Assembly (NCBI RefSeq): GCF_003334385.1
Contig: NZ_QOWN01000004.1
Length of the DNA: 64,000 nt
Direction: 5' to 3' (one strand)
Source of the DNA: Escherichia coli
GTDB taxonomy: Bacteria; Pseudomonadota; Gammaproteobacteria; Enterobacterales; Enterobacteriaceae
The first letter of the stretch is position 1. Every line of letters starts with the position of its first letter. The position numbers and the translations under genes are program-made. The notes under the pieces were generated by a model. It searched no databases and was not told the DNA's origin. It saw only the letters and a list, made by a program, of their open reading frames with translations. Below, in pieces: positions 48,997-49,880 of the stretch.

Positions 48997-49833
48997 TCAT
49001 CCTCTCCTGAACACCTCCCTCCTATGCCACTCCACGAATTCGTCCTGCGGGTAGTATGCTTTTACTTGCGGCAGAGAAATGCTCTTCCCCTGAAAATCCC
49101 AAAACAACCTACCGACGATCCCGCTACCGTTGACCGCTTCTGAAACCTGTACTCGCATACTCTCATCTAAACCAATGGATCCCTTATCAAAAGCTTTATG
49201 ATAAATTGCGCAGAGGGCCAGACCATTAGGAATTTCGCAAGGGCCACCGTACTGCTTCCATTTGATATAGGCCGCCTCCAGCGCGACAGAAGTATTGTCG
49301 TGGCGCATATTGAAGCCGCAAATGGCGCATTCGTAGTTGTAGGCTCGCAGTACCTGTTGGCGGAACAGGGGATCGCGCTGCTTACGTAGCAACAAGAGCT
49401 CAAATCCTAGTTCATCGGCGAGTTCTTCCTGAATGCTCTCGGTGAAATGGGCTTCGAGGATTTGTCGGGCGAGGGAATTAATCAGGCTCTTACTTTTTAT
49501 CAGTTGGTCGTAATGTTGCTTATCAAAGCCGCCAGCAACGTTATGCTCAACCAGCTCACCTGCGGGAGGTCGTCGACTGCTGCCAAATGTGGAACAGCGC
49601 TCCGCGTTTTGTAGTTGCCAGAAACCGTCCCCCTGTAAGCGCCAGAAAGGCATATCCGGTCGGTACTGGGCTCGTTGGGGGCCAAATCGCTCCAGCAGAC
49701 TATGTAGGTTGTCGCGATCTTCCGAAGCGTAATTAAACAGACGCCCATGACCTTGCCGATAACCCGCCAGTACGTATAACAGCAGTAATGGCTTATGCGG
49801 CGCGCACTGCTCGCCATTGCGCCAGGTCGTCAA
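48997..49833 (-). CDS. HNH-family endonuclease with an N-terminal putative DNA-recognition domain, ~278 aa (start uncertain, TTG)
   Basis: C-terminal HNH zinc/active-site pattern YNYECAICGF...RHD...PNGLALCAIYHKAFD; the only in-frame start upstream is TTG at 49833. Confidence 0.6.
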   Translation of the reverse strand: MTTWRNGEQCAPHKPLLLLYVLAGYRQGHGRLFNYASEDRDNLHSLLERFGPQRAQYRPDMPFWRLQGDGFWQLQNAERCSTFGSSRRPPAGELVEHNVAGGFDKQHYDQLIKSKSLINSLARQILEAHFTESIQEELADELGFELLLLRKQRDPLFRQQVLRAYNYECAICGFNMRHDNTSVALEAAYIKWKQYGGPCEIPNGLALCAIYHKAFDKGSIGLDESMRVQVSEAVNGSGIVGRLFWDFQGKSISLPQVKAYYPQDEFVEWHRREVFRRG

Positions 49834-49847
49834 TTGCCTGTTGCAAC

Positions 49848-49880
49848 ATTTGACTGGAACCCATTTGACTGGAACCCATT
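49848..49880. repeat. Tandem 15-bp direct repeat (ATTTGACTGGAACCC x2 plus a partial third copy)
   Basis: Perfect tandem duplication read directly from the sequence, just upstream of the HNH gene start. Confidence 0.6.

Follow-up and report, generated by a model that had tools for sequence, protein, structure and literature searches.

The window analyzed here, a stretch of 64,000 nucleotides of Escherichia coli DNA, carries on its minus strand an ORF of 278 codons that encodes an HNH protein. The ORF and its two domains are located as follows.

48997..49833, minus strand: 278-aa ORF with TTG as first codon, the 5'-truncated remainder of a 290-codon gene for a phosphorothioate-dependent restriction endonuclease with a sulfur-binding domain (SBD) and an HNH domain
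49372..49803, minus strand: SBD, residues 11-154, recognized by homology to ScoMcrA and SprMcrA; the pocket equivalents H13, K14 and P62 are kept
49165..49329, minus strand: HNH_2 nuclease domain (PF13391, 2.1e-7), residues 169-223, with C169-x2-C172 and with C208-x2-Y211, in which Tyr replaces His at position 211

The ORF scored 413.8 bits on the NCBIfam model NF045808 (curated cut-off 180); the match covers ORF residues 1-276 and profile positions 10-284 of 284. The model is named "phosphorothioated DNA-binding restriction endonuclease", which is the SBD-HNH family of EcoWI, SprMcrA and ScoMcrA. The exact 278-aa protein already has a RefSeq/PGAP name (WP_001621112.1), and the same product is present in E. 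coli NCTC11121, which holds a segment identical to the nuclease region of the window. Annotation with PADLOC gave only generic HNH and mREase_IV matches for the ORF. A scan against Pfam-A returned HNH_2 only, and the SBD family PF26340 appears only in precomputed annotations. Because of this Pfam-A result, the assignment of the SBD rests on NCBIfam together with sequence matches to the PDB and a fold search.

In the PDB sequence search, residues 11-154 of the ORF matched the SBDs of ScoMcrA (5ZMO/5ZMM) and SprMcrA (7CC9) with E values from 1e-6 to 5e-5. The residues H116, R117 and P165 of ScoMcrA, whose roles in the sulfur pocket have been described (PMC6224610), align with H13, K14 and P62 of the window protein. 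The closest intact relative (P0003, 290 aa) was modelled with AlphaFold2 from an alignment of 102 sequences, and the model reached a pLDDT of 95.8. When this model was compared with the PDB in Foldseek, the top matches were the SBDs of ScoMcrA and SprMcrA with TMt values of 0.70-0.78 (0.78 for 5zmo), and the HNH enzymes VcaM4I, TagI and EcoKMcrA came next. The model also contains a confidently predicted SBD helix at residues 3-12 (helix 1), which falls within the 13 residues that are lost from the window allele.

By these matches the ORF belongs to the known family of SBD-HNH phosphorothioate-dependent endonucleases, which are classified as type IV and are also called type IIM. A reading made from the sequence alone had proposed a modification-dependent type IV enzyme; this agrees with the NF045808 score, and the assignment can now be narrowed to a phosphorothioate-dependent SBD-HNH protein. 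The same reading had left the specificity of the N-terminal domain open and had named SRA, EVE and winged-helix folds as candidates for a check. By sequence and by fold, the domain is an SBD.

The family is large and well represented in the species. We counted 506 clusters at 50% identity with E <= 1e-30 for proteins of the NF045808 type, and a homolog with 60-80% identity occurs in more than half of the complete E. coli genomes (3251 of 5426). With P0057, the 290-aa homolog that is common in E. coli, the window protein shares 77% identity. Both the family and the exact protein are already known and named; the only added value of the present analysis is to see that the window allele is degenerate.

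The 5' end of the gene

The reference for the 5' end was a DNA alignment of the window with three intact loci (L002, L003 and L004; 92% nucleotide identity). Three features were recognized in this region.

49847-49880, minus strand: perfect 15-bp tandem duplication with 2.3 copies (TRF score 68), an in-frame repeat of the ancestral codons M-G-S-S-Q
49831..49834, minus strand: junction of an 8-bp deletion, by alignment with L002-L004; TGCCGACA of the intact allele (codons A12-D13-M14) is missing
49793..49888, minus strand: relic 5' frame from the ancestral ATG, which reads MKSMGSSQMGSSQMLQQAIDDLAQWRAVRAA and then stops; it is out of the nuclease frame, and its stop lies 38 nt inside the ORF

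Relative to the three intact loci the window has gained the 15 bp of the duplication and, 14 bases further on, has lost 8 bp. The 15-bp unit is single-copy in the intact loci, and because all three relatives carry only one copy, the repeat is a derived insertion. The TTG is located exactly at the deletion junction, in place of an internal ATG of the ancestral gene (M14). The deletion shifts the frame and removes 13 residues including helix 1 of the SBD, so that the complete ancestral N-terminus with this helix and the ATG start is absent from the window allele. Of a gene of 290 codons, the ORF keeps the 277 at the 3' end. In a tblastn search with an intact E. coli homolog against the window, the alignment begins at residue 14 of the homolog. 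The closest relatives, which are from Citrobacter amalonaticus and from metagenomic contigs and are 94-96% identical, are 290-293 aa long and start with MGSSQMLQQAIADMTTWRKGEQRAPHKP or MKSMGSIQ. The upstream ancestral frame of the window reads MKSMGSSQMGSSQMLQQAI and ends out of frame; the N-terminus of an intact relative (P0020) reads MKSMGSIQMLQQAIADMTIWRKGEQ for comparison.

An inspection of the sequence by eye found no obvious Shine-Dalgarno sequence before the native ATG or before the TTG, and a promoter and terminator scan of the region returned nothing above the shuffled expectation.

This 5' region is present in 123 complete E. coli genomes and matches in every one of them at >= 99.4% and without gaps. 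It follows that two copies of the repeat are present in all of them and that both lesions are fixed. The same copy number in 123 of 123 genomes rules out phase variation of the repeat; an error of sequencing or assembly is ruled out as well, because the same lesions occur in 123 independent complete genomes. A programmed frameshift from the ATG frame into the nuclease frame was also considered. It would need a shift of +1, and inspection of the 40-nt overlap found no slippery or hungry-codon site; it was rejected by this inspection, also because sister alleles decay further.

As judged from these alignments, the repeat is a trace of damage within the dead 5' part of the coding sequence and not an upstream regulatory or variable element. 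These results modify the sequence-only reading in several points. Its 278-codon ORF at this position with an HNH_2 match is real, but the TTG, which it had taken as the start, marks a deletion junction. The duplication is indeed perfect with a period of 15 in TRF. However, it does not lie upstream of the start, as had been thought, but inside the ancestral coding N-terminus, and the variation in copy number between strains that had been considered does not occur. The reading had also stated that it would be refuted if the ORF were a piece of a longer, broken gene, and this is what we find at the 5' end disrupted by the 8-bp deletion.

Replaced residues and the allele series

Three codons of the window allele differ at conserved positions of the family.

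49267..49269, minus strand: Tyr codon 189 (TAT); the family has an invariant His here, the first of H-N-H and the general base; plus-strand change G>A at 49269
49201..49203, minus strand: Tyr codon 211 (TAT); the family has an invariant His here, in the CxxH zinc half-site; plus-strand change G>A at 49203
49804..49806, minus strand: Cys codon 10; the position is R23 in the intact protein, an Arg with 92% conservation, and the His-Lys of the sulfur pocket follows three residues later

Conservation was taken from two alignments of diverse family representatives (n=137 and n=102). The invariant columns, in the numbering of the intact protein, are K27, P75, C182, H202, G210, N216, H224, G231 and W282. 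The positions H202 and H224, which are Y189 and Y211 in the window, are His in 100% of the 137 and of the 102 representatives. Around the first of them the window reads ALEAAYIKW where its relatives have ALEAAHIKW; around the second it reads CAIYHKAFD, and every relative has CAIHHKAFD. The C-terminal domain of SBD-HNH proteins is an HNH domain with a CxxC/CxxH zinc finger (PMC7461809). In the window this finger is incomplete: C169-x2-C172 is kept, while C208-x2-Y211 is without its His. The HNH motif that had been noted at the C-terminus from the sequence alone is therefore present as an HNH_2 domain, but its first His is a Tyr, and the CAIYHKAFD string that was quoted for it holds the second His-to-Tyr replacement. 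In the SBD, the residue next to R23C that corresponds to K19 of the intact protein is Asn in the window.

On the basis of established knowledge of ββα-Me/HNH nucleases, we infer that the combined loss of the general base and of a structural zinc ligand abolishes cleavage by the window protein. The two C>T changes on the coding strand were also compared with the Dcm target as a possible deamination hotspot. As read by eye, their contexts are GCC-CAT and ATT-CAT and not CCWGG, and this origin was rejected.

The same 5' lesion is found with different HNH residues in other E. coli genomes. When genomes are grouped by identity of the HNH segment, with the residues of each class confirmed in the fetched loci only, about 120 genomes fall in the class with His at both positions (L006/L007), 16 in the class with Tyr189 and His211 (L005) and 25 in the class with Tyr189 and Tyr211, to which the window and NCTC11121 belong; L001 also has both Tyr residues. 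R23C is present in every allele that was translated. In many genomes of the His,His class the gene is in addition interrupted by IS100, at the site that corresponds to window 49168, and PGAP flags these copies as pseudogenes. In the full-length alleles examined the ORF has stayed open over 837 nt, which counts against a relic; other carriers are the ones cut by IS100.

Three or four substitutions separate the window allele from the His,His alleles, and two of them strike invariant residues. This is more than would be expected from a few random hits; it is an observation that runs counter to simple decay and could mean selection on a product that is expressed. Protein variants within the 90% cluster have replacements in the pocket motif (P12L) and at an invariant Gly (G197S), and also R26W, G84D, R150C and more. 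Such scattered replacements fit a relaxed constraint on the protein.

Together, these data indicate that the ORF is most likely a decaying, nuclease-dead relic of a known EcoWI-like SBD-HNH phosphorothioate-dependent type IV enzyme. An intact enzyme docks with its N-terminal SBD on the Rp-phosphorothioate links that foreign dnd systems introduce, and cleavage nearby is the task of the C-terminal HNH/zinc-finger domain of a dimer. The lesions, and their order among the alleles, can be read directly from the loci, and they give three steps. In the E. coli lineage with the leuX island, a first step brought the 15-bp in-frame duplication, the frameshifting 8-bp deletion (codons 1-14) and R23C; the two 5' lesions are common to all 123 carriers. 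H189Y came second and H211Y third, as in the window, and in other sublineages the insertion of IS100 cut the gene instead. The annotated TTG is an artefact, since the frame is reopened by chance at the deletion junction, and this is the sole reason why the CDS looks intact. Any protein made from the TTG would be without SBD helix 1, the general base and the zinc ligand and should not cleave DNA. We infer from these lesions both a loss of nuclease activity and a lack of useful expression. The allele series, which runs from intact genes in Citrobacter-like loci over the 5' lesion and H189Y to either H211Y or the IS100 cut, is a tidy case of stepwise decay in a type IV enzyme.

PGAP treats the 278-aa ORF as a complete CDS, and this stands as counter-evidence to a relic. 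It would be expected if the gene still encoded a functional, slightly shorter phosphorothioate-dependent type IV endonuclease that is translated from the TTG, and so would be the open frame, the NF045808 score well above the cut-off and the preserved residues of the sulfur pocket. Such an enzyme, however, would have to work with Tyr in place of both the general-base His and the zinc-ligand His of CxxH and without the SBD helix that was removed by the frameshift deletion; it would also start from a codon that lies at a deletion junction and has no convincing ribosome-binding site in front of it (by eye), and its sister alleles are disrupted by IS elements. We consider a functional enzyme extremely unlikely.

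The gene matters little in itself, since its family is characterized biochemically and structurally with EcoWI, ScoMcrA and SprMcrA. The practical point is that pipelines call the 278-aa TTG ORF an intact endonuclease; inventories of defence systems should not count it as active. This caveat covers Dpd-carrying O-serogroup pathogens among the carrier strains.

The surrounding locus and the dpd cluster

The following features of the window lie around the nuclease gene or in the same island.

22525-22609: tRNA-Leu(CAA), the site of the island with an adjoining integrase (leuX island)
25485-45715: dpd cluster, with NCBIfam equivalogs for DpdA, B, E, F, G, H, I, J, K and D
45978-46394: QueD, next to the dpd cluster
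48124..48963, plus strand: fragment of an IS3-family (IS911-like) transposase (NF033516), which adjoins the stop codon of the nuclease ORF
50021..50110, plus strand: remnant of 29 codons of a divergent partner gene, which in intact loci encodes 211 aa with ScoMcrA_N and HNH

The neighbors of the ORF are IS fragments, a gene for a sigma-54 regulator and genes for a CoA-transferase, an HMG-CoA lyase and an MFS protein. The sigma-54 regulator, CoA-transferase, HMG-CoA lyase and MFS genes form a backbone that is syntenic with the Citrobacter-like loci, and the nuclease gene belongs to this older part of the island. In intact loci the genes for the sigma-54 regulator and the SBD-HNH protein flank the divergent 211-aa gene (Pfam ScoMcrA_N and a weak HNH match). 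In the window, about 537 bp of it have been deleted between 8-bp repeats of the sequence CRTGGCAA, with the junction near 50042-50050. On the other side, homology to the intact locus L002 ends at the nuclease stop codon (L002 6873, window ~49000) and the IS3-family fragment follows; since homology ends there, the window no longer has the gene that natively follows downstream (368 aa). A search of NCBIfam found no match for two proteins of the intact locus, the 211-aa partner and the 368-aa product of the downstream gene. Neither dnd nor methyltransferase genes were found among the scanned ORFs of the window, and the RefSeq annotation shows none over 20 kb to each side, which for the methyltransferase confirms what had been noted from the sequence.

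The state of the locus bears on a further explanation, in which a nuclease-dead protein is made from the TTG as a phosphorothioate reader: its SBD would bind phosphorothioate DNA and act by binding or blocking. With H13, K14 and P62 kept, a DNA-binding product is possible, and this too has to be set against a relic. The roles of these pocket residues are established for ScoMcrA (PMC6224610), the ORF is still open with both inactivating changes confined to the HNH domain, and it has been considered for EcoWI that binding alone may slow the replication of phosphorothioate plasmids (PMC7461809). Against this, the SBD has lost its N-terminal helix and two conserved basic residues (K19 and R23), and scattered replacements in sister alleles strike motif residues of the SBD, e.g. 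P12L. The start is poor, the partner and downstream genes have been deleted and the scanned ORFs of the window include no dnd genes. A nuclease-dead reader is in our view very unlikely.

The nuclease ORF matches no Dpd equivalog, and fragments of IS30 and IS3-family elements separate it from dpd. The distance to dpd is 1.7-5 kb within the same island. An identical nuclease allele occurs in NCTC11121, which is without dpd, and three dpd+ genomes outside the lists of Tyr alleles lack the nuclease gene entirely. The nuclease gene is neither a conserved component of the dpd cluster nor always linked to it. The sequence-only reading had expected the enzyme to complement or antagonize the Dpd-like system; the analysis gave no evidence of a functional link, and the identical allele in NCTC11121 exists without that system.

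The alleles are nevertheless distributed unevenly. The genomes concerned are 161 that carry the gene and 46 that are dpd+. In counts that ignore phylogeny, dpd is present in 23 of the 25 Tyr,Tyr genomes and in 9 of 16 with Tyr,His (32/41 for the Tyr alleles together), but not in any of the 19 His,His genomes that were listed. Because the gene and dpd lie so close to each other in one island, this co-occurrence is most simply explained by co-inheritance of a single founding haplotype through physical linkage. It deserves a check that takes phylogeny into account.

The same counts could be explained if inactivation was selected and not neutral. The truncated enzyme would then still have been made and been harmful, either by deregulated nicking, as in SprMcrA without its 87 N-terminal residues, or by a conflict with the Dpd island, and H189Y and then H211Y would have disarmed it. 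Two of the few substitutions between the alleles do strike invariant His codons, SprMcrA with an N-terminally truncated SBD is a toxic non-specific nickase (PMC7461809), and the Tyr alleles are mostly found together with dpd, in contrast to the listed His,His alleles; the three dpd+ genomes mentioned above have no copy of the gene. On the other hand, linkage over 1.7-5 kb accounts for the association with dpd, and a Tyr,Tyr allele without dpd exists in NCTC11121. No chemistry ties the 7-deazaguanine modification to a sulfur-binding domain; the loss here is of 13 residues and not of 87; other alleles show random-looking replacements; and the sample of three or four substitutions is tiny. Selected inactivation as such is very unlikely. 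The specific form of it, in which the two His-to-Tyr changes were selected to disarm an expressed, damaged SBD-HNH nuclease and are tied to carriage of the Dpd island, we regard as very unlikely as well. If true, it would point to an incompatibility between the remnant of a phosphorothioate-sensing nuclease and another DNA-modification system, or to domestication of the protein as a nuclease-dead phosphorothioate reader.

Comparison with known systems

The nearest described systems are the enterobacterial SBD-HNH phosphorothioate-dependent endonucleases with EcoWI (PMC7461809, PMC9521924). EcoWI, SprMcrA and ScoMcrA bind Rp-phosphorothioate and cleave nearby, and cells that express EcoWI restrict dnd+ plasmids (PMC7461809). 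Compared at the level of the EcoWI/NF045808 family and not with the EcoWI sequence itself, the window protein has the same order of an SBD, a linker and an HNH domain with a CxxC/CxxH zinc finger. It also shares the conserved KPzzLL...PF..L..W motif, and like most members its gene is without an adjacent dnd or methyltransferase gene. It differs from the family in that a frameshift deletion has removed the first 13 residues, that the dead 5' end carries a 15-bp duplication and that Tyr occupies two invariant His positions and Cys the position of R23.

The Streptomyces enzymes ScoMcrA and SprMcrA (PDB 5ZMM, 5ZMO and 7CC9) have a homologous SBD, in which H116, R117 and P165 are the counterparts of H13, K14 and P62, albeit with only about 22% identity to the window protein. 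ScoMcrA has in addition a head domain and an SRA domain. A domain similar to ScoMcrA_N is found in the intact enterobacterial locus on a separate protein, the divergent 211-aa HNH protein, which is deleted in the window. The more distant enzymes EcoKMcrA, TagI and VcaM4I share the C-terminal HNH fold (Foldseek E values from 2e-5 to 1e-3) and the general logic of a reader domain joined to HNH. Their readers, however, recognize 5mC/5hmC and not phosphorothioate, and the significant sequence similarity is limited to the HNH domain.

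The dpd island and its junction with the older backbone

The decayed SBD-HNH nuclease gene shares the window with a Dpd 7-deazaguanine DNA-modification/restriction island at tRNA-Leu(CAA), which looks complete. The island contains the genes for DpdA, DpdB, DpdE to DpdK and DpdD, with QueD on the opposite strand; no model match to DpdC was found among the window ORFs scanned. Of 5426 complete E. coli genomes, 46 carry this island, as judged by a match of at least 99% identity to window 44500-47250.

Features of the island and its junction (window coordinates)
22525-46394, dpd island
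22796-24040, integrase of the dpd island
24476-25432, 318-aa ORF immediately upstream of dpdA
46591-47043, minus strand, 150-aa ORF (RefSeq: 'putative zinc ribbon protein')
47254-48963, plus strand, N-terminally truncated IS30 transposase gene, then an IS3/IS911-family fragment

An NCBIfam search returned no match for either the 318-aa or the 150-aa ORF. The latter, together with the truncated IS30 gene and the IS3/IS911-family fragment that follow it, makes up the stretch where the dpd island meets the older island backbone.

Distribution and disruption of the nuclease gene

The co-occurrence of the nuclease alleles with the dpd island was analyzed by comparing the carriage of a nuclease segment (window 49150-49330) with that of a dpd segment (44500-47250) across the complete E. 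coli genomes. Among the 41 genomes whose alleles have Tyr in place of catalytic His, 32 carried the island, as did none of the 19 His,His genomes listed; the nuclease gene was absent from three dpd-positive genomes outside the Tyr lists. This association probably results from physical linkage.

In many E. coli genomes the nuclease gene is severed after codon 222 by IS100 (IS21 family), which is inserted at the position equivalent to window 49168 (seen in the loci L007 and L008); in some of these genomes a 190-bp HNH fragment is all that remains after further deletion. These insertions and deletions are independent evidence for the dispensability of the gene.

Nuclease homologs in the 60-80% nucleotide identity band occur in 3140 of the 5426 complete genomes. 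UPEC 536 encodes an unbroken 290-aa homolog (L009 5995-6867; 72% nucleotide and 77% amino acid identity) at the opposite end of the leuX-region islands, beside nanS/nanM/nanC/fimB. NCTC11121 has both the decayed nuclease copy and a second matching place.

The divergent partner gene

Intact Citrobacter-like loci contain a divergent 211-aa gene adjoining the SBD-HNH gene (L002 5224-5859). Its product matches Pfam ScoMcrA_N and, weakly, HNH; the NCBIfam search gave no match to this protein, which may act, for example, as a partner nuclease or a regulator. The gene has shrunk to a remnant in the window:

50021-50110, plus strand, partner-gene remnant

Only a remnant is likewise left in UPEC 536 (L009 6967-7071), adjacent to the intact EcoWI-like gene. 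Together, the partner and SBD-HNH genes of intact loci cover the domain set of ScoMcrA, with the exception of its SRA domain.
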